This document shows, one piece after another, positions 47,705 through 64,000 of a stretch of DNA of 64,000 nucleotides. The notes below the pieces were generated by a model. It did not search any database. It was given only the letters and a program-made list of their open reading frames with translations, and was not told the DNA's origin. Each line of letters starts with the position of its first letter. The first letter of the stretch is position 1. The DNA is taken from NCBI RefSeq assembly GCF_056746865.1, contig NZ_CM163382.1, one strand, 5' to 3'. The position numbers and the translations under genes are program-made.

Positions 47705-47809
47705 ACGGTTATAAATCAACATATTGATTTATAAGCATGGAAATCCCCTGAGTGAAACAACGAATTGCTGTGTGTAGTCTTTGCCCATCTCCCACGATGG
47801 GCTTTTTTT
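47705..47809 (+). ncRNA. rprA: Small regulatory RNA RprA (rpoS translational activator)
   Basis: ACGGTTATAAATCAACATATTGATTTATAAGCATGGAAATCCCCTGAGTGAAACAACGAATTGCTGTGTGTAGTCTTTGCCCATCTCCCACGATGGGCTTTTTTT matches the known 105-nt RprA, including the terminator hairpin and U-run. Confidence 0.93.
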
Positions 47810-47947
47810 TAACATTTTTCCGCTTCGCTACCTCGCCCCTCACGCTTTCCAATAATGTTGCACAAGATACTGTGACTCTCTTCAAGCCGTCAGCAGGCTG
47901 ATAATGTTATTTATATTTTATTGTTTATTTCATGCAGCCATTACACG

Positions 47948-49153: not shown

Positions 49154-50348
<1,195 letters not shown>

Positions 50349-50352
50349 CTTA

Positions 50353-50816
50353 GTATCTACACCGTGGGTTCGCTGCTTTGTGTATTTATTACCGCTCCAC
50401 TCATTCGTAATACCGTTCGCCCAACAACATTACTGATGCTGTACACCTTTATCTCATTTATTGCTCTGTTTACCGTCTGCCTGCATCCCACATTTTATGT
50501 GGTGATAATATTTGCTTTTGTCATTGGTTTTACCTCTGCTGGAGGTGTTGTGCAAATTGGCCTGACGTTAATGGCTGAACGTTTCCCCTATGCTAAAGGT
50601 AAAGCTACAGGGATCTATTACAGTGCGGGCAGTATTGCAACATTTACCATTCCGTTGATTACGGCTCATCTGTCCCAAAGAAGTATTGCCGATATTATGT
50701 GGTTCGATACCGCCATCGCTGCCATCGGCTTTTTACTGGCACTGTTTATCGGCTTACGCAGCCGCAAAGAAACGCGGCATCACTCGCTAAAGGAAAATGT
50801 CGCTCCGGGTGGGTAA
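50353..50816 (+). pseudogene. ydiM: 3' fragment of ydiM downstream of IS5
   Basis: Joining 48403..49153 to 50353..50816 gives a 1215-nt ORF (404 codons plus stop) encoding one 12-TM MFS transporter. Confidence 0.88.
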
Positions 50817-51042
50817 TGCAATATTCTTTTCAGGTCATGCAAGATCTTACGGATAAATAACTATTTCTGCGCTAACTAAGGAAAATCGCGATCAAAAACA
50901 AACTATGACATGCAATATTCCTGGAAACATAAACTTTATGCCATGTACCCAGGGAAAATCATCTTCAGTATAGTAATTATGTAAACCGTCGGAGAACAAT
51001 ACGTACGGTAACGAAATTATCTTTCAGCAAGGAGCTGTGAAA

Positions 51043-52308
51043 ATGTCTCAAAATAAGGCTTTCAGCACGCCATTTATCCTGGCTGTTCTTTGTATTTACT
51101 TCAGCTATTTCCTGCACGGCATTAGTGTTATTACGCTTGCCCAAAATATGTCATCTCTGGCAGAAAAGTTTTCCACTGACAACGCGGGCATTGCCTATTT
51201 AATTTCCGGTATCGGTTTGGGGCGATTGATCAGTATTTTATTCTTCGGTGTGATCTCCGATAAGTTTGGTCGTCGGGCGGTGATATTAATGGCAGTAATA
51301 ATGTATCTGCTATTCTTCTTTGGTATTCCCGCTTGCCCGAATTTAACTCTCGCCTACGGTCTGGCAGTGTGCGTAGGTATCGCTAATTCAGCGCTGGATA
51401 CGGGTGGCTACCCCGCGCTCATGGAATGCTTTCCGAAAGCCTCTGGTTCGGCGGTCATACTGGTTAAAGCGATGGTGTCATTCGGGCAAATGTTCTACCC
51501 AATGCTGGTGAGCTATATGTTGCTCAATAACATCTGGTACGGCTATGGGCTGATTATTCCGGGTATTCTGTTTGTACTGATCACACTGATGCTGTTGAAA
51601 AGCAAATTCCCCAGCCAGTTGGTGGACGCCAGCGTAGCTAATGAATTACCGCAAATGAACAGCAAACCGTTAGTCTGGCTGGAAGGTGTTTCATCAGTAC
51701 TGTTCGGTGTAGCCGCATTCTCGACCTTTTATGTGATTGTGGTGTGGATGCCCAAATATGCGATGGCTTTTGCTGGTATGTCAGAAGCTGAGGCATTAAA
51801 AACCATCTCTTATTACAGTATGGGCTCGTTGGTCTGTGTCTTTATTTTTGCCGCACTGCTGAAAAAAATGGTCCGGCCCATCTGGGCTAATGTATTTAAC
51901 TCTGCACTGGCAACAATAACAGCTGCCATTATCTACCTGTACCCTTCTCCATTGGTGTGTAATGCCGGAGCCTTTGTTATCGGTTTCTCAGCAGCTGGCG
52001 GCATTTTACAGCTCGGCGTTTCGGTCATGTCAGAGTTTTTCCCAAAAAGCAAAGCCAAAGTCACCAGTATATATATGATGATGGGTGGACTGGCTAATTT
52101 TGTTATTCCGCTGATTACCGGTTATCTGTCGAACATCGGCCTGCAATATATCATTGCTCTCGATTTTACTTTCGCGCTGCTGGCCCTGATTACCGCAATT
52201 ATTGTCTTTATCCGCTATTACCGCGTTTTCATTATTCCTGAAAATGATGTGCGGTTTGGCGAGCGTAAATTTAGCACCCGGTTAAACACAATTAAGCATA
52301 GAGGTTAA
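51043..52308 (+). CDS. ydiN: MFS transporter
   Basis: About 421-aa ORF (track start 51037), paralogous to ydiM; upstream of ydiB-aroD. Confidence 0.9.
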
Positions 52309-52319
52309 AGGAGTTAATT

Positions 52320-53186
52320 ATGGATGTTACCGCAAAATACGAATTGATTGGGCTGATGGCCTATCCCATCCGCCACAGTTTATCGCCTGAAATGCAGAAT
52401 AAAGCCTTAGAAAAAGCGGGATTGTCATTTACCTATATGGCCTTTGAAGTGGATAACGATAGTTTTCCCGGAGCAATTGAAGGATTAAAAGCCCTCAAAA
52501 TGCGCGGAACTGGTGTATCAATGCCGAACAAACAACTGGCGTGTGAATATGTTGATGAATTAACGCCAGCGGCCAAACTGGTGGGTGCCATCAACACCAT
52601 CGTTAATGATGATGGCTATCTGCGTGGCTATAACACCGACGGCACGGGCCATATTCGCGCCATTAAAGAGAGCGGTTTTGATATCAAAGGCAAAACGATG
52701 GTGCTGTTAGGGGCCGGAGGTGCCTCAACGGCGATTGGCGCGCAGGGGGCAATTGAAGGTTTAAAAGAAATTAAACTCTTTAACCGTCGGGATGAGTTCT
52801 TCGATAAAGCCCTCGCCTTCGCGCAGCGGGTTAACGAAAACACCGATTGTGTCGTCACGGTTACCGATCTCGCCGATCAGCAAGCCTTTGCTGAAGCCCT
52901 GGCTTCCGCCGACATTTTAACCAATGGCACAAAAGTGGGTATGAAACCCCTTGAGAATGAATCATTGGTTAATGATATCAGTCTGTTACATCCGGGACTT
53001 CTGGTCACTGAATGCGTGTATAACCCGCATATGACGAAGTTATTGCAGCAGGCGCAACAAGCTGGTTGCAAAACGATTGATGGATACGGCATGTTGTTGT
53101 GGCAAGGGGCTGAACAGTTCACGTTATGGACTGGCAAAGATTTCCCTCTGGAATATGTTAAACAGGTCATGGGGTTCGGTGCCTGA
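52320..53186 (+). CDS. ydiB: Quinate/shikimate 5-dehydrogenase (NAD(P))
   Basis: 288-aa AroE-paralog ORF with Rossmann motif LGAGGAS. Confidence 0.93.
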
Positions 53187-53216
53187 CAGGCTGACCGCGT
53201 GCAGAAAGGGTAAAAA

Positions 53217-53975
53217 ATGAAAACCGTAACTGTAAAAGATCTCGTCATTGGTACGGGCGCACCTAAAATCATCGTCTCGCTGATGGCGAAAGATATCGCC
53301 AGCGTGAAATCTGAAGCTCTCGCCTATCGTGAAGCGGACTTTGATATTCTGGAATGGCGTGTTGACCACTATGCCGACCTCTCCAATGTGGATTCTGTCA
53401 TGGCGGCGGCAAAAATTCTCCGTAAAACCATGCCAGAAAAACCGCTGCTGTTTACCTTCCGCAGTGCCAAAGAAGGCGGCGAGCAGGCGATTTCCACCGA
53501 GGCTTATATTGCACTCAATCGTGCAGCCATCGACAGCGGCCTGGTTGATATGATCGATCTGGAGTTATTTACCGGCGATGATCAGGTTAAAGAAACCGTC
53601 GCCTACGCCCACGCGCATGATGTGAAAGTTGTCATGTCCAACCATGACTTCCATAAAACGCCGGAAGCCGAAGAAATCATTGCCCGTCTGCGCAAAATGC
53701 AGTCCTTCGACGCCGATATTCCTAAGATTGCGCTGATGCCGCAAAGTACCAGCGATGTGCTGACGTTGCTTGCCGCGACCCTGGAGATGCAGGAGCAGTA
53801 TGCCGATCGTCCAATCATCACGATGTCAATGGCAAAAACTGGCGTAATTTCTCGTCTGGCTGGTGAAGTATTTGGCTCGGCGGCAACTTTTGGTGCGGTA
53901 AAAAAGGCCTCTGCACCAGGGCAAATCTCGGTAAATGATTTGCGCACGGTATTAACTATTTTACACCAGGCATAA
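53217..53975 (+). CDS. aroD: 3-dehydroquinate dehydratase, type I
   Basis: 252-aa ORF, recognised as AroD. Confidence 0.95.
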
Positions 53976-54119
53976 GCAATAATATTTCGGCGGGAACATC
54001 CTCCCCCGCCGAACTAAAAAAATATATTTAACCGTATTTAATAAAAATATTTCGTGAGTCTCTGTGCGCTAATTCTCCATCTGGCGTAGGGAAAATCACA
54101 CCTGAATCAGGAATTAACA

Positions 54120-55715
54120 ATGAAACCTGTAAAACCACCTCGTATTAATGGACGAGTGCCGGTCCTGTCGGCACAGGAAGCGGTGAATTATATTCCCGAC
54201 GAAGCAACACTTTGTGTGTTAGGCGCTGGCGGCGGTATTCTGGAAGCCACCACGTTAATTACAGCTCTTGCTGATAAATATAAACAGACTCAAACGCCAC
54301 GTAATTTATCGATTATTAGTCCGACAGGGCTTGGCGATCGCGCCGACCGTGGTATTAGTCCGCTGGCGCAAGAAGGTCTGGTGAAATGGGCATTATGCGG
54401 TCACTGGGGACAATCGCCGCGTATTTCTGATCTCGCAGAACAAAATAAAATTATTGCTTATAACTATCCACAAGGTGTACTTACACAAACCTTACGCGCC
54501 GCCGCAGCCCACCAGCCTGGTATTATTAGTGATATTGGCATCGGAACATTTGTCGATCCACGCCAGCAAGGCGGCAAACTGAATGAAGTCACTAAAGAAG
54601 ACCTGATTAAACTGGTCGAGTTTGAAAACAAAGAATATCTCTATTACAAAGCGATAGCGCCAGATATTGCCTTCATTCGCGCTACCACCTGCGACAGCGA
54701 AGGCTACGCCACTTTTGAAGATGAGGTGATGTATCTCGACGCATTGGTTATTGCCCAGGCGGTGCACAATAACGGCGGTATTGTGATGATGCAGGTGCAG
54801 AAAATGGTTAAGAAAGCCACGCTGCATCCTAAATCTGTCCGTATTCCGGGTTATCTGGTGGATATTGTGGTGGTCGATCCGGATCAAACCCAACTGTATG
54901 GCGGTGCGCCGGTTAACCGCTTTATTTCTGGTGACTTCACCCTTGATGACAGCACCAAACTTAGCCTGCCCCTAAACCAACGTAAATTAGTTGCACGGCG
55001 CGCATTATTCGAAATGCGTAAAGGCGCGGTGGGGAATGTCGGCGTCGGTATTGCTGACGGCATTGGCCTGGTCGCCCGGGAAGAAGGTTGTGCTGATGAC
55101 TTTATTCTGACGGTAGAAACAGGTCCGATTGGCGGAATTACTTCACAGGGTATCGCCTTTGGCGCGAACGTGAATACCCGCGCCATTCTGGATATGACGT
55201 CCCAGTTTGATTTTTATCACGGTGGTGGTCTGGATGTTTGTTATTTGAGTTTTGCTGAAGTCGACCAGCACGGTAACGTCGGCGTGCATAAATTCAATGG
55301 CAAAATCATGGGCACCGGTGGATTTATTGATATCAGTGCCACTTCGAAGAAAATCGTTTTCTGCGGCACATTAACTGCGGGCAGTTTAAAAACAGAAATT
55401 ACCGACGGCAAATTAAATATCGTCCAGGAAGGACGGGTGAAGAAATTTATTCGGGAACTACCGGAAATTACTTTCAGCGGAAAAATCGCTCTCGAGCGAG
55501 GGCTGGATGTTCGTTATATCACTGAGCGCGCAGTATTCACACTGAAAGAAGACGGCCTGCATTTAATCGAAATCGCCCCTGGCGTCGATTTACAAAAAGA
55601 TATTCTCGACAAAATGGATTTCACCCCAGTGATTTCGCCAGAACTCAAACTGATGGACGAAAGATTATTTATCGATGCGGCGATGGGTTTTGTCCTGCCT
55701 GAAGCGGCTCATTAA
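54120..55715 (+). CDS. ydiF: Fused alpha/beta acyl-CoA:acetate CoA-transferase
   Basis: 531-aa ORF, family I CoA-transferase. Confidence 0.9.
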   Translation: MKPVKPPRINGRVPVLSAQEAVNYIPDEATLCVLGAGGGILEATTLITALADKYKQTQTPRNLSIISPTGLGDRADRGISPLAQEGLVKWALCGHWGQSPRISDLAEQNKIIAYNYPQGVLTQTLRAAAAHQPGIISDIGIGTFVDPRQQGGKLNEVTKEDLIKLVEFENKEYLYYKAIAPDIAFIRATTCDSEGYATFEDEVMYLDALVIAQAVHNNGGIVMMQVQKMVKKATLHPKSVRIPGYLVDIVVVDPDQTQLYGGAPVNRFISGDFTLDDSTKLSLPLNQRKLVARRALFEMRKGAVGNVGVGIADGIGLVAREEGCADDFILTVETGPIGGITSQGIAFGANVNTRAILDMTSQFDFYHGGGLDVCYLSFAEVDQHGNVGVHKFNGKIMGTGGFIDISATSKKIVFCGTLTAGSLKTEITDGKLNIVQEGRVKKFIRELPEITFSGKIALERGLDVRYITERAVFTLKEDGLHLIEIAPGVDLQKDILDKMDFTPVISPELKLMDERLFIDAAMGFVLPEAAH

Positions 55716-55728
55716 CAGGAGTATCACG

Positions 55729-56880
55729 ATGGATTTTTCTTTAACTGAAGAACAAGAACTGCTGCTGGCCAGTATTCGCGAACTGATTACGACTAACTTT
55801 CCGGAAGAGTATTTCCGCACCTGCGATCAAAACGGGACATACCCGCGTGAATTTATGCGGGCACTGGCGGATAACGGTATTTCCATGCTTGGCGTGCCGG
55901 AAGAATTTGGTGGTATCCCTGCGGATTACGTCACCCAAATGCTGGCGCTGATGGAAGTGTCAAAATGCGGTGCCCCGGCATTTTTGATCACCAACGGTCA
56001 ATGTATTCACAGTATGCGCCGTTTCGGTTCTGCAGAGCAGCTACGTAAAACGGCGGAAAGCACCCTGGAAACGGGTGATCCCGCCTATGCCCTGGCATTG
56101 ACGGAACCAGGCGCAGGCTCAGATAACAACAGCGCCACCACCACTTACACGCGTAAAAACGGCAAGGTTTACATCAACGGCCAGAAAACCTTTATTACCG
56201 GTGCGAAAGAGTACCCGTATATGCTGGTGCTGGCGCGCGATCCGCAACCGAAAGATCCCAAAAAAGCCTTCACCCTGTGGTGGGTCGACTCCAGTAAGCC
56301 CGGCATTAAGATTAACCCGCTGCATAAAATCGGCTGGCATATGCTCAGCACCTGCGAAGTCTATCTCGACAACGTGGAAGTTGAAGAGAGCGACATGGTG
56401 GGCGAAGAAGGAATGGGTTTCCTCAATGTGATGTATAACTTTGAGATGGAGCGCCTGATCAACGCCGCGCGCAGCACCGGCTTTGCCGAGTGTGCCTTTG
56501 AAGATGCCGCCCGCTATGCCAACCAGCGTATCGCTTTTGGTAAACCCATTGGTCATAACCAGATGATCCAGGAAAAACTGGCGCTGATGGCGATTAAGAT
56601 CGACAACATGCGCAACATGGTGTTGAAAGTGGCATGGCAAGCCGATCAGCATCAGTCACTGCGCACCAGCGCGGCGCTGGCAAAACTGTACTGCGCACGT
56701 ACCGCAATGGAAGTTATTGATGATGCGATTCAAATCATGGGCGGTCTGGGCTATACCGATGAGGCGCGCGTCTCTCGCTTCTGGCGTGATGTCCGTTGTG
56801 AACGTATCGGCGGCGGTACAGACGAAATTATGATTTACGTAGCGGGTCGGCAGATCCTGAAAGATTATCAGAACAAATAA
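55729..56880 (+). CDS. ydiO: Acyl-CoA dehydrogenase-family protein (FAD)
   Basis: ORF trimmed to ATG at 55729 (MDFSLTEEQELL...), giving 383 aa. Confidence 0.9.
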   Translation: MDFSLTEEQELLLASIRELITTNFPEEYFRTCDQNGTYPREFMRALADNGISMLGVPEEFGGIPADYVTQMLALMEVSKCGAPAFLITNGQCIHSMRRFGSAEQLRKTAESTLETGDPAYALALTEPGAGSDNNSATTTYTRKNGKVYINGQKTFITGAKEYPYMLVLARDPQPKDPKKAFTLWWVDSSKPGIKINPLHKIGWHMLSTCEVYLDNVEVEESDMVGEEGMGFLNVMYNFEMERLINAARSTGFAECAFEDAARYANQRIAFGKPIGHNQMIQEKLALMAIKIDNMRNMVLKVAWQADQHQSLRTSAALAKLYCARTAMEVIDDAIQIMGGLGYTDEARVSRFWRDVRCERIGGGTDEIMIYVAGRQILKDYQNK

Positions 56881-56922
56881 TCTGCAGGCGGCGCAGCTTC
56901 TTAACAAACTGCGCCGCCAGAT

Positions 56923-57834
56923 TTATCCAACAAGACTTACCGGTTGAGGAAATTCAGATAAGATTTCTTGTTCCGCAAAACAGTTTTTAAATTGCCTGCG
57001 GTAATCGCTGGGCGAACAGCCGACATGGCGCAAAAACAGTTTGGCAAAGTGATCGACATTTTCATAACCCACACGCCAGGAGATCTCTGCCTGTGATAAT
57101 TCAGTATTAGTGAGTGACCATTTCGCTTCCGTCATACGCCGTTGAATAACATAGTTAATAGGGGAAATGCGATACTCTTTGGTAAATTCATGGCAAATAT
57201 AACTGACGCTGGCACGAAACTTTTTCGATAACTGCTCTAAAGTGATTTTTTCGCGATAGTTATTATTCAGATAGAAAAGAATATCTTTTATCAGAACATC
57301 TTTTTTAATATATCCCTGCTCCGAACGATAAGCATTTTTAAAGTTTTCGTAGTAAAGAATTGCTAACGTATAGGCAAAGGCGTCCCATAACGAAGATGTT
57401 TGGCTATTTTTACTTTGCGGCAAAATCACACTTAGCTCATTAAATAAGGTTTTAATGACTTCTTTTCCCTGCCCTGCGGCAATTACCGGGCAAGAATGCG
57501 GTTGCAGTAGCTGATTTTCCTCAGCCCCCTGAAACTGAAAGCCGTACAGCGCACAAGTACACGTCGTTGCCGGATCGTTAACGTCAGAGGCCACCGCATG
57601 CAGCCTGCCACGTTCTATCACCACAATGTCATCGGCGTGCGCGACATATAACGAAGAATCGATGGTAAACCTTGCTACCCCTTTCTTGACGTAAATCAAC
57701 TCAGTTTCATTGTCATGAACGTGATGTCCGGACTCCCATTTTGGATCATCGCTAAATGCAAAACGTGAAAGCCGTGGCGTTTTACCGGCGACAAACAGCG
57801 TTTCGCTGGCGTTATCAAAACAGCGTTGATACAT
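56923..57834 (-). CDS. ydiP: AraC-family transcriptional regulator
   Basis: 303-aa ORF with N-terminal cupin-like domain and C-terminal AraC HTH; divergent from ydiQRST. Confidence 0.88.
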   Translation of the reverse strand: MYQRCFDNASETLFVAGKTPRLSRFAFSDDPKWESGHHVHDNETELIYVKKGVARFTIDSSLYVAHADDIVVIERGRLHAVASDVNDPATTCTCALYGFQFQGAEENQLLQPHSCPVIAAGQGKEVIKTLFNELSVILPQSKNSQTSSLWDAFAYTLAILYYENFKNAYRSEQGYIKKDVLIKDILFYLNNNYREKITLEQLSKKFRASVSYICHEFTKEYRISPINYVIQRRMTEAKWSLTNTELSQAEISWRVGYENVDHFAKLFLRHVGCSPSDYRRQFKNCFAEQEILSEFPQPVSLVG

Positions 57835-58149
57835 GACAACCTCCCTATTCCATGAGCAAGCAAAAACAATATATGCCGGATAAAATACGGCGTGTATTGC
57901 GGTTATACAACCGCGTTTAGCGAGAGCTAAACAAGATTATTTACACTGAATGCAAGATTGTACGGTCATGGAATAACTATATTGCCGCAAATTGCACTTT
58001 TGTTTTAGCGATCGCATTTTTTTTGCAAGATTGTTGGCAAGGAAAACAGCTTGCTCCGTCGAAAACCCCGCACCGCTATCGCACACTATTTTCAGACCAT
58101 TTTTACCTTCCATCGGAGATGGTTCCGTATGCGACTCACAGGAGAAATC

Positions 58150-58914
58150 ATGAAAATAATAACCTGCTTTAAGCTGGTGCCTGAAGAACAGGACATTGTT
58201 GTCACTCCAGAATATACCCTGAATTTCGACAATGCCGACGCCAAAATCAGCCAGTTCGATCTCAATGCCATTGAAGCTGCAAGCCAGATTGCAACAGATG
58301 ACGATGAGATAGCCGCGCTGACCATTGGCGGCTCATTGTTGCAGAACTCGAAAGTGCGTAAAGACGTGCTATCCCGCGGGCCGCATAGCCTGTATTTGGT
58401 GCAGGATGCGCAACTTGAACATGCACTGCCTCTCGATACCGCAAAGGCGCTGGCGGCAGCAGTTGAAAAGATCGGCTTCGATTTACTGATCTTTGGTGAA
58501 GGTTCCGGCGACCTTTATGCCCAGCAGGTTGGCTTGCTGGTCGGAGAAATTCTGCAACTTCCGGTGATTAATGCAGTGAGTGCTATTCAGCGTCAGGGCA
58601 ATACACTGGTGATTGAACGCACGCTTGAAGATGATGTTGAAGTTATTGAGCTCTCTGTTCCAGCCGTGCTCTGCGTCACCTCCGATATTAATATGCCACG
58701 CATTCCTTCGATGAAAGCCATTCTCGGCGCGGGTAAAAAACCGATAAATCAGTGGCAGGCAAGTGACATTGGCTGGAGCCAGAGCGCGCCACTTGCTGAG
58801 CTGACCGGCATTCGCGTACCGCCGCAAACAGAACGTAAGCACATCATTCTCGATAACGATTCGCCGGAGGCCATTGCCGAGCTGGCGGAATATCTGAAGA
58901 AAGCCCTGAACTGA
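58150..58914 (+). CDS. ydiQ: Electron transfer flavoprotein beta-subunit homolog
   Basis: ORF trimmed to ATG at 58150 (MKIITCFKLVPEEQD...) with AGGAGA RBS; 254 aa. Confidence 0.9.
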   Translation: MKIITCFKLVPEEQDIVVTPEYTLNFDNADAKISQFDLNAIEAASQIATDDDEIAALTIGGSLLQNSKVRKDVLSRGPHSLYLVQDAQLEHALPLDTAKALAAAVEKIGFDLLIFGEGSGDLYAQQVGLLVGEILQLPVINAVSAIQRQGNTLVIERTLEDDVEVIELSVPAVLCVTSDINMPRIPSMKAILGAGKKPINQWQASDIGWSQSAPLAELTGIRVPPQTERKHIILDNDSPEAIAELAEYLKKALN

Positions 58915-58933
58915 AGCCTACGGAGAAGAAACG

Positions 58934-59872
58934 ATGAGTCAATTAAACAGCGTCTGGGTCTTTAGCGATAATCCTGAACGTTATGCTGAACTGTTTGGCG
59001 GCGCGCAGCAATGGGGCCAACAGGTGTATGCCATTGTACAAAATACCGACCAGGCGCAGGCAGTTATGCCTTATGGTCCAAAATGTATTTATGTTCTTGA
59101 GCAAAATGATGCGCTGCAACGTACTGAAAATTACGCCGAAAGCATTGCTGCCCTGCTGAAAGATAAACATCCTTCTATGTTGCTGCTGGCCGCGACGAAA
59201 CGCGGTAAAGCTCTGGCAGCACGGTTAAGTGTGCAACTGAATGCGGCGCTGGTGAACGATGCCACTGCGGTGGATATTGTCGATGGTCACATTTGCGCCG
59301 AACACCGGATGTATGGCGGGTTAGCGTTCGCACAGGAAAAGATCAACAGCCCGCTGGCGATCATTACCCTTGCACCCGGTGTTCAGGAACCGTGCACCAG
59401 TGATACCGCTCATCAGTGCCCGACAGAAACGGTACCTTATGTTGCCCCGCGTCATGAAATTCTCTGTCGCGAACGCCGTGCGAAAGCGGCAAGCAGCGTG
59501 GACCTGAGCAAAGCAAAACGTGTGGTTGGCGTCGGTCGTGGTCTGGCAGCGCAGGATGACCTGAAAATGGTCCACGAACTGGCGGCGGTGCTGAATGCTG
59601 AAGTCGGCTGTTCACGTCCAATTGCCGAAGGCGAGAACTGGATGGAGCGTGAACGTTATATCGGTGTCTCCGGCGTGTTGCTGAAATCCGATCTCTACCT
59701 GACGCTGGGGATCTCCGGGCAGATCCAGCATATGGTTGGCGGCAACGGCGCAAAAGTGATTGTCGCCATCAATAAAGATAAAAATGCGCCAATCTTCAAC
59801 TATGCCGACTACGGTCTGGTGGGCGATATCTACAAAGTCGTCCCTGCCCTGATTAGCCAGTTGAGCCGCTAA
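58934..59872 (+). CDS. ydiR: Electron transfer flavoprotein alpha-subunit homolog
   Basis: 312-aa ORF, EtfA-like FAD-binding C-terminus. Confidence 0.9.
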   Translation: MSQLNSVWVFSDNPERYAELFGGAQQWGQQVYAIVQNTDQAQAVMPYGPKCIYVLEQNDALQRTENYAESIAALLKDKHPSMLLLAATKRGKALAARLSVQLNAALVNDATAVDIVDGHICAEHRMYGGLAFAQEKINSPLAIITLAPGVQEPCTSDTAHQCPTETVPYVAPRHEILCRERRAKAASSVDLSKAKRVVGVGRGLAAQDDLKMVHELAAVLNAEVGCSRPIAEGENWMERERYIGVSGVLLKSDLYLTLGISGQIQHMVGGNGAKVIVAINKDKNAPIFNYADYGLVGDIYKVVPALISQLSR

Positions 59873-59927
59873 TTCCCCTTTCAACCACATCTCCCGCTGT
59901 AAACGCAGCGGGAAGGGAGCATAACGC

Positions 59928-61217
59928 ATGTCGGATGACAAATTTGATGCCATTGTGGTCGGTGCGGGCGTTGCCGGTAGCGTTGCCGCACTGGTCATGG
60001 CGCGAGCCGGGCTGGATGTCCTGGTGATAGAACGCGGCGACAGTGCCGGATGTAAAAACATGACCGGCGGGCGTCTTTATGCCCACACACTTGAAGCGAT
60101 TATTCCAGGCTTTGCAGCATCAGCGCCGGTAGAACGCAAGGTCACACGCGAGAAAATCTCCTTCTTAACCGAAGAAAGCGCCGTTACCCTCGACTTTCAC
60201 CGCGAGCAACCAGATGTTCCGCAACACGCGTCTTATACCGTATTGCGTAATCGTCTGGACCCGTGGTTGATGGAACAAGCCGAGCAGGCGGGCGCGCAGT
60301 TTATCCCGGGCGTACGCGTCGATGCGCTGGTTCGTGAAGGAAACAAGGTCACTGGCGTGCAGGCCGGGGATGATGTTCTTGAAGCGAATGTGGTGATTCT
60401 GGCTGATGGCGTTAACTCGATGCTTGGCCGCTCGCTGGGAATGGTTTCCGCTTCCGATCCGCATCATTACGCTGTTGGTGTTAAAGAGGTTATTGGCTTC
60501 ACACCAGAACAGATCAACGATCGCTTTAATATTACGGGCGAGGAAGGTGCCGCCTGGCTGTTTGCCGGTTCCCCTTCTGACGGCCTGATGGGTGGCGGAT
60601 TCCTCTATACCAATAAGGATTCCATATCGTTGGGGCTGGTTTGTGGATTGGGTGATATCGCCCATGCGCAAAAAAGCGTGCCGCAAATGCTGGAAGATTT
60701 TAAACAACACCCCGCCATTCGCCCGCTGATTAGCGGCGGCAAACTGCTTGAATATTCCGCGCATATGGTGCCGGAAGGCGGTCTGGCAATGGTGCCGCAG
60801 CTGGTTAACGATGGCGTGATGATCGTTGGTGACGCCGCAGGCTTCTGCCTGAATTTGGGTTTTACAGTTCGCGGCATGGATTTAGCCATTGCATCAGCTC
60901 AGGCTACCGCCACAACAGTGATTGCCGCCAAAGAACGCGCGGATTTCTCCGCCAGCAGTCTGGCGCAATACAAACGTGAGCTGGAACAAAGTTGTGTTAT
61001 GCGCGATATGCAGCATTTCCGCAAGATCCCGGCGCTGATGGAAAATCCGCGCCTGTTTAGTCAGTATCCGCGCATGGTCGCCGACATCATGAACGATATG
61101 TTCACCATTGACGGCAAACCAAACCAGCCGGTACGCAAAATGATCATGGGACACGCGAAAAAAATTGGGCTGATCAACTTGCTGAAAGATGGCATTAAGG
61201 GAGCAACCGCGCTATGA
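59928..61217 (+). CDS. ydiS: FAD-dependent oxidoreductase (FixC-like ETF-quinone oxidoreductase family)
   Basis: 429-aa ORF with N-terminal dinucleotide-binding motif AIVVGAGVAGS. Confidence 0.9.
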   Translation: MSDDKFDAIVVGAGVAGSVAALVMARAGLDVLVIERGDSAGCKNMTGGRLYAHTLEAIIPGFAASAPVERKVTREKISFLTEESAVTLDFHREQPDVPQHASYTVLRNRLDPWLMEQAEQAGAQFIPGVRVDALVREGNKVTGVQAGDDVLEANVVILADGVNSMLGRSLGMVSASDPHHYAVGVKEVIGFTPEQINDRFNITGEEGAAWLFAGSPSDGLMGGGFLYTNKDSISLGLVCGLGDIAHAQKSVPQMLEDFKQHPAIRPLISGGKLLEYSAHMVPEGGLAMVPQLVNDGVMIVGDAAGFCLNLGFTVRGMDLAIASAQATATTVIAAKERADFSASSLAQYKRELEQSCVMRDMQHFRKIPALMENPRLFSQYPRMVADIMNDMFTIDGKPNQPVRKMIMGHAKKIGLINLLKDGIKGATAL

Positions 61218-61507
61218 GCCAGAACGCTACGGTTAACGTCGACATCAAATTAGGCGTCAATAAATTCCATGTTGATGAGGGCCACCCGCATATCATTTTG
61301 GCGGCAAATCCCGATATCAATGAATTCCGTAAATTAATGAAAGCCTGCCCTGCCGGACTTTATAAGCAGGATGACGCCGGCAACATTCATTTTGATTCTG
61401 CCGGTTGTCTGGAGTGCGGCACCTGTCGGGTGCTGTGCGGCAACACTATTCTCGAACAGTGGCAATATCCCGCAGGCACCTTCGGTATTGATTTTCGCTA
61501 CGGCTAA
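61214..61507 (+). CDS. ydiT: Ferredoxin-like protein (FixX-like)
   Basis: 97-aa ORF with Cys cluster; 4-nt overlap with ydiS. Confidence 0.88.
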   Translation: MSQNATVNVDIKLGVNKFHVDEGHPHIILAANPDINEFRKLMKACPAGLYKQDDAGNIHFDSAGCLECGTCRVLCGNTILEQWQYPAGTFGIDFRYG

Positions 61508-61509
61508 TC

Positions 61510-63210
61510 ATGCATCCCACAGGCCCGCATCTCGGGCCTGATGTTCTGTCTCGAGAGTCCAAAATGAAAGTGACATTAACGTTTAACGAACAACGTCGTG
61601 CGGCGTATCGTCAGCAAGGGCTATGGGGCGATGCTTCGCTGGCCGATTACTGGCAGCAGACCGCTCGTGCGATGCCAGACAAAATTGCCGTGGTCGATAA
61701 TCATGGAGCATCGTACACCTATAGCGCGCTCGATCACGCCGCGAGCTGTCTGGCAAACTGGATGTTAGCGAAGGGTATTGAATCAGGCGATCGCATCGCA
61801 TTTCAACTGCCTGGCTGGTGTGAATTTACCGTTATCTATCTTGCCTGCCTGAAAATCGGTGCGGTTTCCGTACCGCTGTTGCCTTCCTGGCGGGAAGCAG
61901 AACTAGTATGGGTGCTCAATAAGTGTCAGGCAAAAATGTTCTTTGCTCCGACGTTGTTTAAACAAACGCGTCCGGTAGATTTAATCCTGCCGCTGCAAAA
62001 TCAGCTTCCACAACTACAACAACTTGTCGGCGTGGACAAACTGGCTCCCGCCACCTCTGCTCTCTCATTAAGTCAGATTATCGCCGACAATACTCCTCTA
62101 ACCACGGCGATAACGGTCCACGGCGATGAATTAGCCGCGGTGCTGTTTACCTCCGGAACCGAGGGTCTGCCAAAGGGCGTGATGCTAACGCATAACAATA
62201 TTCTCGCCAGTGAGCGGGCTTATTGCGCGCGGTTGAATCTGACCTGGCAGGATGTCTTTATGATGCCTGCGCCACTTGGTCATGCAACGGGCTTTCTGCA
62301 TGGCGTAACGGCACCATTCTTAATTGGCGCTCGCAGCGTGTTGTTAGATATTTTCACTCCTGATGCGTGTCTCGCGCTGCTTGAGCAGCAGCGTTGCACC
62401 TGTATGCTCGGCGCAACGCCGTTTGTCTATGATCTTTTGAATTTACTGGAGAAACAACCCGCTGACCTTTCAGCGCTGCGCTTCTTTCTTTGCGGCGGGA
62501 CCACAATCCCCAAAAAAGTGGCGCGTGAATGCCAGCAGCGCGGCATTAAATTATTAAGTGTTTATGGTTCCACAGAAAGTTCGCCGCACGCAGTGGTGAA
62601 TCTCGACGATCCTTTGTCGCGCTTTATGCACACCGATGGTTACGCTGCCGCAGGTGTTGAGATTAAAGTGGTCGATGACGCACGCAAGACCTTACCGCCA
62701 GGTTGCGAAGGTGAAGAAGCCTCGCGTGGCCCCAATGTGTTTATGGGGTATTTTGATGAACCTGAATTAACCGCCCGTGCCCTGGATGAAGAAGGCTGGT
62801 ATTACAGCGGCGATCTCTGCTGCATGGATGAGGCCGGCTATATAAAAATAACCGGGCGCAAGAAAGATATTATTGTCCGCGGCGGCGAAAATATTAGCAG
62901 CCGTGAAGTAGAAGATATTTTATTGCAGCATCCTAAAATTCACGATGCCTGTGTGGTTGCGATGCCCGATGAACGTTTAGGTGAACGCTCATGCGCTTAT
63001 GTCGTGCTGAAAGCACCGCATCATTCATTATCGCTGGAAGAGGTGGTGGCTTTTTTTAGCCGTAAACGGGTCGCGAAATATAAATATCCTGAACATATCG
63101 TGGTAATCGAAAAACTACCGCGCACTGCCTCAGGTAAAATACAAAAGTTTTTGTTAAGGAAAGATATTATGCGGAGATTAACTCAGGATGTCTGTGAAGA
63201 GATTGAATAA
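61510..63210 (+). CDS. fadK: Short-chain acyl-CoA synthetase (anaerobic), AMP-binding family
   Basis: ORF 61510..63210 (566 aa) with AMP-binding signature; an alternative start at 61564 (MKVTLTF...) would give 548 aa. Confidence 0.88.
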   Translation: MHPTGPHLGPDVLSRESKMKVTLTFNEQRRAAYRQQGLWGDASLADYWQQTARAMPDKIAVVDNHGASYTYSALDHAASCLANWMLAKGIESGDRIAFQLPGWCEFTVIYLACLKIGAVSVPLLPSWREAELVWVLNKCQAKMFFAPTLFKQTRPVDLILPLQNQLPQLQQLVGVDKLAPATSALSLSQIIADNTPLTTAITVHGDELAAVLFTSGTEGLPKGVMLTHNNILASERAYCARLNLTWQDVFMMPAPLGHATGFLHGVTAPFLIGARSVLLDIFTPDACLALLEQQRCTCMLGATPFVYDLLNLLEKQPADLSALRFFLCGGTTIPKKVARECQQRGIKLLSVYGSTESSPHAVVNLDDPLSRFMHTDGYAAAGVEIKVVDDARKTLPPGCEGEEASRGPNVFMGYFDEPELTARALDEEGWYYSGDLCCMDEAGYIKITGRKKDIIVRGGENISSREVEDILLQHPKIHDACVVAMPDERLGERSCAYVVLKAPHHSLSLEEVVAFFSRKRVAKYKYPEHIVVIEKLPRTASGKIQKFLLRKDIMRRLTQDVCEEIE

Positions 63211-63266
63211 GTTTCATCTTCGGGGATCACATAAACCCGGCGACTGAACGCCGCCGGGGATTTATT

Positions 63267-64000
63267 TTATTTCTTCAGTTCAGCCAGGCTTAACCAGGTT
63301 TGCACCACGGTATCCGGGTTCAGAGACAGGCTATCGATCCCTTCTTCCATCAACCATGCGGCAAAGTCTTCGTGGTCGGACGGGCCCTGACCGCAAATCC
63401 CGACATATTTGCCCTGTTTCTTCGCGGCACGAATCGCCATCGACAGCAGTGCTTTCACCGCATCGTTGCGCTCATCGAACAGTTCAGACACCACTCCGGA
63501 GTCACGGTCCAGACCGAGCGCCAGCTGTGTCATGTCGTTTGAGCCAATTGAGAAGCCGTCGAAATATTCGAGGAACTGCTCTGCCAGCAAGGCGTTGGAC
63601 GGAATTTCACACATCATGATGATTTTCAGCCCGTTCTCACCACGTTTCAGCCCCTGACGCGCCAATTCGTCAACCACCGCTTTCGCCTGATCTACGGTAC
63701 GCACGAACGGGATCATGATCTCAACGTTGGTCAGTCCCATGTCGTTGCGCACACGTTTCACTGCTTCACACTCCAGCGCAAAGCAGTCGCGGAAGCTGTC
63801 GGAAACATAGCGGCCCGCGCCACGGAAGCCGAGCATCGGGTTCTCTTCATCTGGCTCGTAACGCTCACCACCGACCAGGTTGGCATATTCGTTCGATTTA
63901 AAATCAGAGAGACGGACAATGACGCGCTTCGGATAAAACGCGGCACCCAGCGTCGCGATCCCTTCAGTCAGACGCCCAACGTAAAATTCACGCGGAGAAT
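63267..64000 (-). CDS. ppsA: Phosphoenolpyruvate synthase, C-terminal part; the 5' end lies beyond the window
   Basis: Minus-strand frame is open from 63267 to the window edge; C-terminal sequence ...[18 protein letters not shown]; PEP-utilising enzyme TIM-barrel domain. Confidence 0.9.

Follow-up and report, generated by a model that had tools for sequence, protein, structure and literature searches.

The gene cluster ydiF-ydiO/ydiP/ydiQRST-fadK lies at positions 54120-63210 of the window studied here, that is, the whole stretch of 64,000 nucleotides from contig NZ_CM163382.1 (RefSeq assembly GCF_056746865.1). We propose that this locus makes up the two thirds on the right of a more extended regulon, ydiN-ydiB-aroD-ydiF-ydiO/ydiP/ydiQRST-fadK (50817-63210), which would resemble the carnitine Cai/Fix system in its design and be aimed at a hydroaromatic acid (quinate/shikimate), a proposal that we regard as evenly balanced. 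The more specific step, namely that E. coli, many Enterobacterales, and Sutterella possess an unrecognised anaerobic quinate/shikimate respiration, in which YdiN, YdiB, AroD, YdiF, YdiO, YdiQRST, and FadK, switched by YdiP, would yield a trihydroxycyclohexane-carboxylate, is put forward tentatively and with somewhat lower confidence. Substrate, direction of electron flow, and the role of the quinol are inferred from comparison of sequences. The original prediction, made from the DNA letters, had seen here a complete electron-bifurcating or anaerobic β-oxidation module; this is the usual view of the locus, and the evidence bears it out only in part. As first written, the observation restated known, ordinary annotation; the follow-up alters what merits testing. 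The left boundary of the cluster now appears to have been drawn too tightly, with ydiN-ydiB-aroD tied in by synteny and by a common promoter architecture.

A scan with YdiR, one genome per species, returned 80 loci, which were mapped against the proteins of the ydi cluster, the cai/fix locus, and the upstream region. Wherever a ydi-type locus spans the whole region, its genes are ordered ydiN-ydiB-aroD-ydiF-ydiO-ydiP-ydiQRST-fadK; this order was seen in Escherichia, Citrobacter, Kosakonia, Intestinirhabdus, Brenneria, Serratia, Yersinia, Prodigiosinella, and metagenome-assembled genomes (MAGs), with some ydi-type loci ending early at contig ends. In all loci of the ydi type the transporter gene ydiN accompanies ydiF/ydiO, whereas no ydiP was detected in those of Symbiopectobacterium (L024 and L034). 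Loci of the cai type and of a third, YdiO-like cluster type, which served as the negative control within the same scan, never occurred with ydiB or aroD. Salmonella, whose YdiF is 92% identical, is absent from the 80 loci.

The betaproteobacterium Sutterella wadsworthensis holds the same genes with the exception of ydiP, at 51-83% identity and in rearranged form, such that ydiO-ydiF-aroD-ydiB-ydiN lie on one strand, divergent from ydiQRST-fadK. Homologs of YdiF were also traced into metagenomic contigs, where six contexts were examined, and in five of the six the YdiF homolog (63-76% identity) stands beside a shikimate dehydrogenase or a type I or type II dehydroquinase. The fullest of these, L085 and L086, present a single operon in the order major facilitator superfamily (MFS) transporter, CoA-transferase, acyl-CoA dehydrogenase, electron-transfer flavoprotein (ETF) beta and alpha subunits, shikimate dehydrogenase, type I dehydroquinase, FixC, and FixX, with an AraC gene upstream; L089, from a member of the Burkholderiales near Saezia, shares this core, after which come ApbA, MaoC, and glyoxalase-fold genes. 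The orthologs in these three operons are close to the E. coli proteins (YdiO 83%, YdiF 70%, YdiB 76-77%, AroD 68-70%), and in L085 an ortholog of YdiN (70%) heads the operon while one of YdiP (45%) adjoins it; their ETF and FixCX proteins are equidistant from ydiQRST and fixABCX. In L085 and L089 the ydiB ortholog sits between the ETF-alpha and dehydroquinase genes, with fixC following the dehydroquinase gene in L085, and it is difficult to account for shikimate-pathway genes embedded in this manner, with ETF genes on one side and FixC on the other, unless all of them serve one pathway. Two further contigs (L083, L084) carry a shikimate dehydrogenase gene immediately 5' of ydiF (76%) and ydiO (89%). 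In the Cloacibacillus context a clear shikimate gene was missing, and NMO, MaoC, and TRAP transporter genes were seen instead.

Several related arrangements were met in the course of this survey. A low-GC module in L087/L088 (10001-14082, assembly GCA_022702905.2) and in Sedimentibacter (L090, 10001-14011) combines a YdiF-like transferase (63-65%), a MaoC dehydratase, and an ApbA-like reductase with a small open reading frame (ORF) and a type II dehydroquinase; it may handle dehydroquinate or dehydroshikimate by another route that depends on CoA. A predicted protein of 651 amino acids on a 4144-bp ENA contig (P0055) joins the N-terminal shikimate-dehydrogenase domain PF08501 to a CoA_trans domain; it shares 83% identity with YdiF and is either a true fusion or an artefact of gene calling. 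Upstream of the regulon, ydiM (49602-50816) encodes an MFS paralog, ≈ 36% identical to YdiN, and ends at the base preceding the first of the ydiN boxes described below; two MFS genes flank the AraC gene in L085 and two precede the operon in L089, and ydiM may be part of the same system. A third FixABCX-type module was found in eight loci (L036, L038-L041, L043, L055, L067) from Budvicia, E. albertii, Phytobacter, Citrobacter youngae, Edaphovirga, and a Telmatospirillum MAG. Here a YdiO-like gene (65-70% identity) lies directly 5' of ydiQRST-fadK-like genes, ydiB and aroD are missing, and a CaiB-type (family III) transferase, a second, distant acyl-CoA dehydrogenase, and mostly an AraC regulator are encoded nearby, usually on the opposite strand. 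This module is presumably a further substrate-specific enoate system.

A putative three-box operator, present twice in the window, argues that ydiN-ydiB-aroD and ydiQRST-fadK belong to one regulon. The copy 5' of ydiN (50817-50918, plus strand) consists of TGCAATAT (50817-50824), TGCAAGAT (50838-50845), and TGCAATAT (50911-50918), and the copy in the ydiP-ydiQ intergenic region (57930-58031, plus strand) of AACAAGAT (57930-57937), TGCAAGAT (57951-57958), and TGCAAGAT (58024-58031). Spacing is identical at the two sites, 21 + 73 bp, and the distance from the last box to the ATG is 132 bp for ydiN and 126 bp for ydiQ. Phylogenetic footprinting over 13 Enterobacterales revealed that the ydiP-ydiQ boxes are conserved, the last box and its flanks being almost invariant from Escherichia to Yersinia; among 18 loci, 33 of the 49 exact matches to TGCAAGAT fall within the ydiP-ydiQ intergenic region. 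The ydiN boxes are kept at -226/-205/-132 in Escherichia, two Citrobacter species, and Intestinirhabdus. The composite RCAAKAT-N14-GCAAGAT-N66-GCAAKAT has exactly two matches in the 64-kb window, 5' of ydiN and of ydiQ, is kept at both sites in four genera, and had no match in shuffles; a relaxed version of it matched related loci at the ydiN and ydiQ positions only, with none in 1.75 Mb of shuffled sequence. Counts of single 8-10-mers across the window are at chance level; the signal of the operator lies in position, conservation, and composite geometry rather than in the number of single boxes.

Similar box pairs accompany the distant relatives. The divergent intergenic region of Sutterella contains a pair spaced by 21 bp that faces the ydiN operon, and the AraC/MFS intergenic region of L085 contains another of the same spacing, formed by AGCAAGAT (one mismatch) and TGCAAGAT. 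A direct-repeat spacing of ≈ 21 bp is typical of operators of the AraC family. YdiP belongs to the AraC/XylS family by its Pfam domains (AraC_binding, Cupin_2, HTH_18), with 21-bp-spaced boxes at two promoters, and would be the factor binding the three boxes. Transcription of ydiN-ydiB-aroD probably reads through into ydiF-ydiO, since the hairpin between aroD and ydiF is followed by an A-run on the plus strand and not by a T-run.

The design of the ydi cluster is that of the carnitine Cai/Fix system, as a comparison of its proteins with those of the K-12 cai/fix locus shows. In the carnitine system a CoA-transferase shuttles CoA from product to substrate and back, a ligase primes the cycle, a CaiA-type enzyme reduces the enoyl-CoA, and FixABCX supplies the electrons. 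YdiQ, YdiR, YdiS, and YdiT are 54, 44, 62, and 63% identical to FixA, FixB, FixC, and FixX, respectively, in fully colinear order, and the spacers between the genes are nearly the same (19/55/-4 for ydiQRST vs 14/50/-4 for fixABCX). The 4-nt overlap of ydiS and ydiT, in which stop and start share ATGA at 61214-61217, is real as originally predicted; as a special feature of this locus it does not hold, for the overlap is common to fixC-fixX-type pairs and is met again in the operon of a distant ortholog. YdiO shares 48% identity with CaiA along its full length and scores 452 bits against the CaiA equivalog model, below the cut-off of 540, which makes it a paralog and not CaiA itself; FadK and CaiC share 29% identity. 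YdiS combines the FAD-binding fold with the quinone-binding domain of ETF:quinone oxidoreductase (ETF-QO; PF21162, 36.7 bits vs a cut-off of 27.7) and is recognised by the NCBIfam model of the FixC subfamily (642 bits vs 610), so that it is a FixC/ETF-QO-like flavoprotein with a FixX-type partner in YdiT, whose score against the FixX model (144 bits) stays below the cut-off of 166. Complete cai-fix loci occur in Shewanella and Ferrimonas (L045-L054, L058, L060-L064, L071, L078, L082), where FixC and FixX score nearer to YdiS and YdiT than to the FixC and FixX of E. coli; these loci seem to reflect an evolutionary shuffling of the electron module relative to the reductase genes.

Along these lines, a pathway can be drawn in which YdiN would import quinate or shikimate, or exchange the product, and YdiB together with AroD would convert quinate via 3-dehydroquinate and 3-dehydroshikimate to shikimate. 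The conversion would run over YdiB, AroD, and YdiB again, net redox-neutral, which would account for ydiB and aroD travelling with the cluster. Shikimate is an α,β-unsaturated ring carboxylate, so that shikimoyl-CoA would be a 2-enoyl-CoA and of the substrate type of a CaiA-like reductase. YdiF would transfer CoA from the product thioester to shikimate, with FadK, the counterpart of CaiC, priming the CoA cycle with ATP; YdiO would reduce the double bond of the 2-enoyl-CoA with electrons that pass from the quinol pool through YdiS/YdiT to the ETF formed by YdiQ and YdiR, without bifurcation; and YdiF would finally free the saturated trihydroxycyclohexane-carboxylate. YdiP would switch on both promoters through the common three-box operator.

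Published observations are consistent with parts of this scheme. According to one report, shikimate acts in S. wadsworthensis as a growth-stimulating electron acceptor whose enoate group is reduced, and the product was assigned as 3,4,5-trihydroxycyclohexanecarboxylate by tandem mass spectrometry without an authentic standard, at confidence level 3 (10.1101/2022.12.26.521950). In a shikimate-accumulating aroK aroL strain of E. coli, ydiQ, ydiR, ydiS, and ydiT are listed among the significantly upregulated genes, with tabulated values of 20-32 (PMC4015609). For the transfer of electrons from menaquinol to an ETF and on to an acyl-CoA dehydrogenase that reduces an enoyl-CoA there is a reported precedent (PMC8805022).

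A number of points weigh against the hydroaromatic reading. The adjacency of ydiB and aroD in Enterobacterales could be plain vertical synteny, because aroD encodes the biosynthetic dehydroquinase. The supplements of a chromatin immunoprecipitation study of YdiP list no entry for ydiQ, ydiN, ydiO, ydiF, or ydiB. In S. wadsworthensis a flavin reductase of the FAD_binding_2 family is encoded convergently with fadK, beside a sensor kinase that has a periplasmic binding domain and a response regulator of the LuxR type (L072, 14556-18435); this reductase, with its own two-component system, could be the true shikimate reductase, or a chance neighbour. YdiF uses acetoacetate and acetate in vitro. One study has reportedly linked it to the formation of lactyl-CoA (PMC9636275). 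The aroK aroL study was carried out without a wild-type control, and ydiF and ydiB changed in the same direction without reaching significance (PMC4015609). The published enzymology and genetics favour short acyl groups: the activity of FadK is highest with C6-C8 fatty acids, as summarised in a review (PMC9329746), ydiO is reported to be important when a fadE mutant uses fatty acids, and ydiQRSTD of Salmonella has been described in terms of anaerobic β-oxidation of butyrate. A literature search returned no report tying ydiF, ydiO, or ydiQRST to quinate or shikimate, most subscription journals lying outside the search. The enzymes may be promiscuous, and roles in fatty-acid and hydroaromatic metabolism need not exclude each other.

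The last of these points lead to the strongest competitor, the standard assignment to anaerobic β-oxidation of fatty acids of short and medium chain length, for instance butyrate, which we hold to be rather unlikely. In this scheme FadK and YdiF would activate the acid, YdiO would dehydrogenate the acyl-CoA, YdiQR and YdiST would form the outlet to quinone, and FadIJ, encoded elsewhere, together with a respiratory acceptor such as nitrate would complete the pathway. Besides the observations on FadK, ydiO, and ydiQRSTD just mentioned, it draws on genetics, from which the pathway was proposed, with a fadD fadK double mutant failing on all fatty acids (PMC9329746), and on a Salmonella literature that also places ydiFO, ydiQRST, and fadHIJK in anaerobic β-oxidation. 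The review cited for the double mutant finds experimental evidence for a part of YdiQR in anaerobic growth on fatty acids to be lacking, in agreement with the earlier description of the cluster as incompletely characterised; it adds that anaerobic induction of fadK is disputed and was not seen in transcriptomes, and that no control of fadK by FadR or CRP is known (PMC9329746).

YdiF, a CoA-transferase of family I, has its alpha and beta parts joined in one polypeptide (Pfam CoA_trans, E-value 8e-49) and matches over its full length the crystallised YdiF (PDB 2AHU, 2AHV, 2AHW; 1187.5 bits); its closest non-self NCBIfam model, the FadX of Staphylococcus (388 bits, below cut-off), speaks for fatty acids, and BLAST found no match between YdiF and CaiB. 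FadK is covered by its own model from residue 1 to 547 of 548 (NF004758, 1088 bits), and the runner-up among the NCBIfam models is a cyclohexanecarboxylate-CoA ligase (420 bits, below cut-off). Among the annotated genes and Pfam matches between 50.8 and 63.3 kb there is no hydratase, 3-hydroxyacyl-CoA dehydrogenase, or thiolase, nor is a crotonase among the annotated genes of the cluster, and the β-oxidation module can thus not be called complete. Furthermore, a role in fatty-acid oxidation leaves unexplained why orthologs of ydiB and aroD are embedded in the operons of other lineages, and why ydiN and ydiQ share an operator architecture.

A further alternative retains the hydroaromatic substrates and inverts the flow of electrons. 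Saturated cyclohexane-carboxylates produced by other gut microbes, for example hydroshikimate, would be activated as CoA esters, which YdiO would dehydrogenate; the electrons would travel via the ETF and YdiST to quinone, and the resulting shikimate or dehydroshikimate would either be salvaged for the synthesis of aromatics or serve as an electron donor. Synteny and regulon are neutral as to direction, the flow through an ETF and ETF-QO normally runs toward quinone, for which YdiS has the binding domain, and the reports on fatty acids and butyrate describe oxidations. We nevertheless consider this salvage route improbable. CaiA/FixABCX, the closest characterised paralog, is reductive, caiA being annotated as crotonobetainyl-CoA reductase, and fixA and fixB are required for anaerobic reduction of carnitine according to Walt and Kahn (2002), as cited in PMC9329746. 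S. wadsworthensis, the sole cluster-bearing organism with a relevant published phenotype, reduces shikimate (10.1101/2022.12.26.521950). Moreover, conversion of quinate to shikimate by YdiB and AroD is needed only if an enoate is being made.

With regard to bifurcation, the evidence lies in the small ETF subunit. In the numbering of R. palustris, the bifurcating FAD is bound by D93, T94, and T97 (PMC6764259), and CarD, LctB, and the EtfB of C. difficile carry G-A-D-T/V-x-A-T at this second-FAD site. YdiQ has L, P, and T at positions 93, 94, and 97, within A-L-P-L-D-T-A, and shares the motif P-L-x-x-A-x-x-L-A with the canonical ETFs of Paracoccus and human; its nucleotide loop, GEGSGDLYAQQVG, fits neither the bifurcating nor the canonical type. 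FixA of E. coli likewise has an ALP motif (ALPQQTA), with the first two positions as in YdiQ, and the same divergent nucleotide loop. These replacements make it very improbable that the cluster encodes an electron-bifurcating or ferredoxin-dependent enoyl-CoA reductase, in which YdiQR, in the manner of Bcd-EtfAB or the FixABCX of nitrogen fixers, would divide the electrons of NADH between enoyl-CoA on YdiO and, via YdiST, a ferredoxin of low potential or quinone, despite the homology of ydiQRST to FixABCX and although the closest PDB matches of YdiQ and YdiR are the bifurcating ETFs CarD/CarE, LctB/LctC, and EtfAB of C. difficile; the bifurcating function originally suggested is thus unsupported by the sequence.

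As to the layout of the locus, gene coordinates were mapped from the RefSeq annotation of an identical genome (window position = locus position + 47999), and the proteins of the cluster were searched with Pfam and NCBIfam profiles; gene identities, domain assignments, and gene order are as first described. All genes lie on the plus strand with the exception of ydiP. According to the RefSeq annotation, the upstream part comprises ydiN (51043-52308, MFS transporter), ydiB (52320-53186, quinate/shikimate dehydrogenase), and aroD (53217-53975, type I 3-dehydroquinate dehydratase). These are followed by ydiF (54120-55715), encoding the family I CoA-transferase, and by ydiO (55729-56880), whose product carries three Pfam acyl-CoA dehydrogenase domains. 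The AraC-family regulator YdiP, with its cupin/AraC ligand-binding domain, is encoded on the minus strand (56923-57834); noted at first simply as divergently transcribed, it diverges from ydiQ only and is convergent with ydiO. The gap of 42 bp between ydiO and ydiP holds an inverted repeat (56887-56918, unstranded) with 16-nt arms (56887-56902 and 56903-56918) that are 88% complementary, and is likely a bidirectional terminator. The electron module is made up of ydiQ (58150-58914, ETF small or beta subunit, FixA paralog), ydiR (58934-59872, ETF large or alpha subunit, FixB paralog; Pfam ETF and ETF_alpha), ydiS (59928-61217, FixC-type flavoprotein), and ydiT (61214-61507, FixX-type ferredoxin-like protein, assigned by NCBIfam), and fadK (61564-63210, AMP-binding acyl-CoA synthetase) concludes the cluster, with ppsA next and convergent.

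The ORFs obtained mechanically are longer than the annotated genes, and it is the shorter, annotated forms that the NCBIfam models cover from end to end, the matching lengths being 383 amino acids for YdiO, 254 for YdiQ, and 548 for FadK (start at 61564). In the case of fadK, an in-frame ATG at 61510, 2 nt past the stop of ydiT, would yield a protein of 566 residues; the start at 61564 is favoured because the curated FadK model fits the form of 548 residues and because a GC-rich hairpin in the ydiT-fadK spacer (61520-61540, plus strand) sits inside the longer ORF. Scans for promoters and terminators gave no excess over shuffled sequence (8 promoter-like sites vs 11.6 expected), and since such sites are no commoner than in shuffles, no sigma-70 promoter is claimed. 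A generic repeat search returned short repeats at chance level only, apart from the ydiO/ydiP hairpin. The sole match of an Rfam scan was RprA, outside the cluster; the rprA gene for this already known small RNA lies between ydiK and ydiL (47705-47812, plus strand; 118.5 bits vs a gathering score of 70).

The cluster is core and already well-known E. coli sequence. By megablast, positions 54000-64000 of the window are 100% identical to several complete E. coli chromosomes, and among 5426 complete E. coli genomes, 5356 (≈ 98.7%) cover 80% or more of the 12.6-kb stretch from ydiN to fadK. A second megablast place in each genome proved to be a fragment of fixB only, at 79% identity.

If the hydroaromatic reading is true, a core locus of E. 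coli and Salmonella that has been unassigned for twenty years would acquire a physiological role, and about ten y-ome or poorly characterised core genes would at once gain a function, which becomes directly testable. The reading would explain YdiB, the long-unexplained second shikimate dehydrogenase beside AroE, and identify the likely class of effector of YdiP. Quinate is contained in coffee and fruit and derives from chlorogenic acid, and a common dietary compound would thus join the electron acceptors of gut Enterobacteriaceae. In addition, results in Salmonella that were ascribed to butyrate oxidation would deserve re-examination.

Among known systems, the carnitine system caiTABCDE plus fixABCX (and caiF) is the nearest in design. 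Both systems have a CaiA-type reductase, here YdiO, with a colinear electron module, here ydiQRST, as well as an AMP-forming CoA ligase, a CoA-transferase, a transporter, and an activator of their own, in a divergent arrangement of operons. On the other hand, YdiF is a family I and CaiB a family III transferase, two non-homologous proteins in analogous roles; the transporter is of the MFS type in ydi and of the BCCT type in cai; the regulator is of the AraC type instead of CaiF; and the ydi cluster is devoid of the crotonase CaiD and of CaiE, the double bond in its case being formed, according to the proposal, on the free acid via AroD and not on the CoA ester. The substrate is clearly no betaine.

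The set for anaerobic β-oxidation proposed by Campbell, Morgan-Kiss, and Cronan (fadK, fadIJ, ydiO) shares its genes with the ydi cluster, including the published assignment of fadK and ydiO; it differs in that hydratase, dehydrogenase, and thiolase genes lie elsewhere under control of FadR/ArcA, while the comparative evidence links the ydi cluster to quinate/shikimate genes instead. The bifurcating EtfAB/FixABCX proteins (group 2 ETFs) resemble YdiQRST in fold, order of subunits, and FixC/FixX partners, with the FAD-binding residues that define bifurcation replaced in YdiQ. Enoyl-CoA respiration in Syntrophus (PMC8805022) reportedly offers an ETF and an acyl-CoA dehydrogenase working in reverse on a cyclic enoyl-CoA (cyclohex-1-ene-1-carboxyl-CoA) with electrons from quinol, although with a membrane oxidoreductase other than FixCX, in unrelated organisms, and on a non-hydroxylated substrate. 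Shikimate respiration by the gut bacteria Eggerthella lenta and S. wadsworthensis amounts to the same overall reaction as proposed here (10.1101/2022.12.26.521950). While E. lenta induces a single flavin reductase of the flavocytochrome type and uses no CoA esters, S. wadsworthensis has the ydi gene set, except for ydiP, in its genome.

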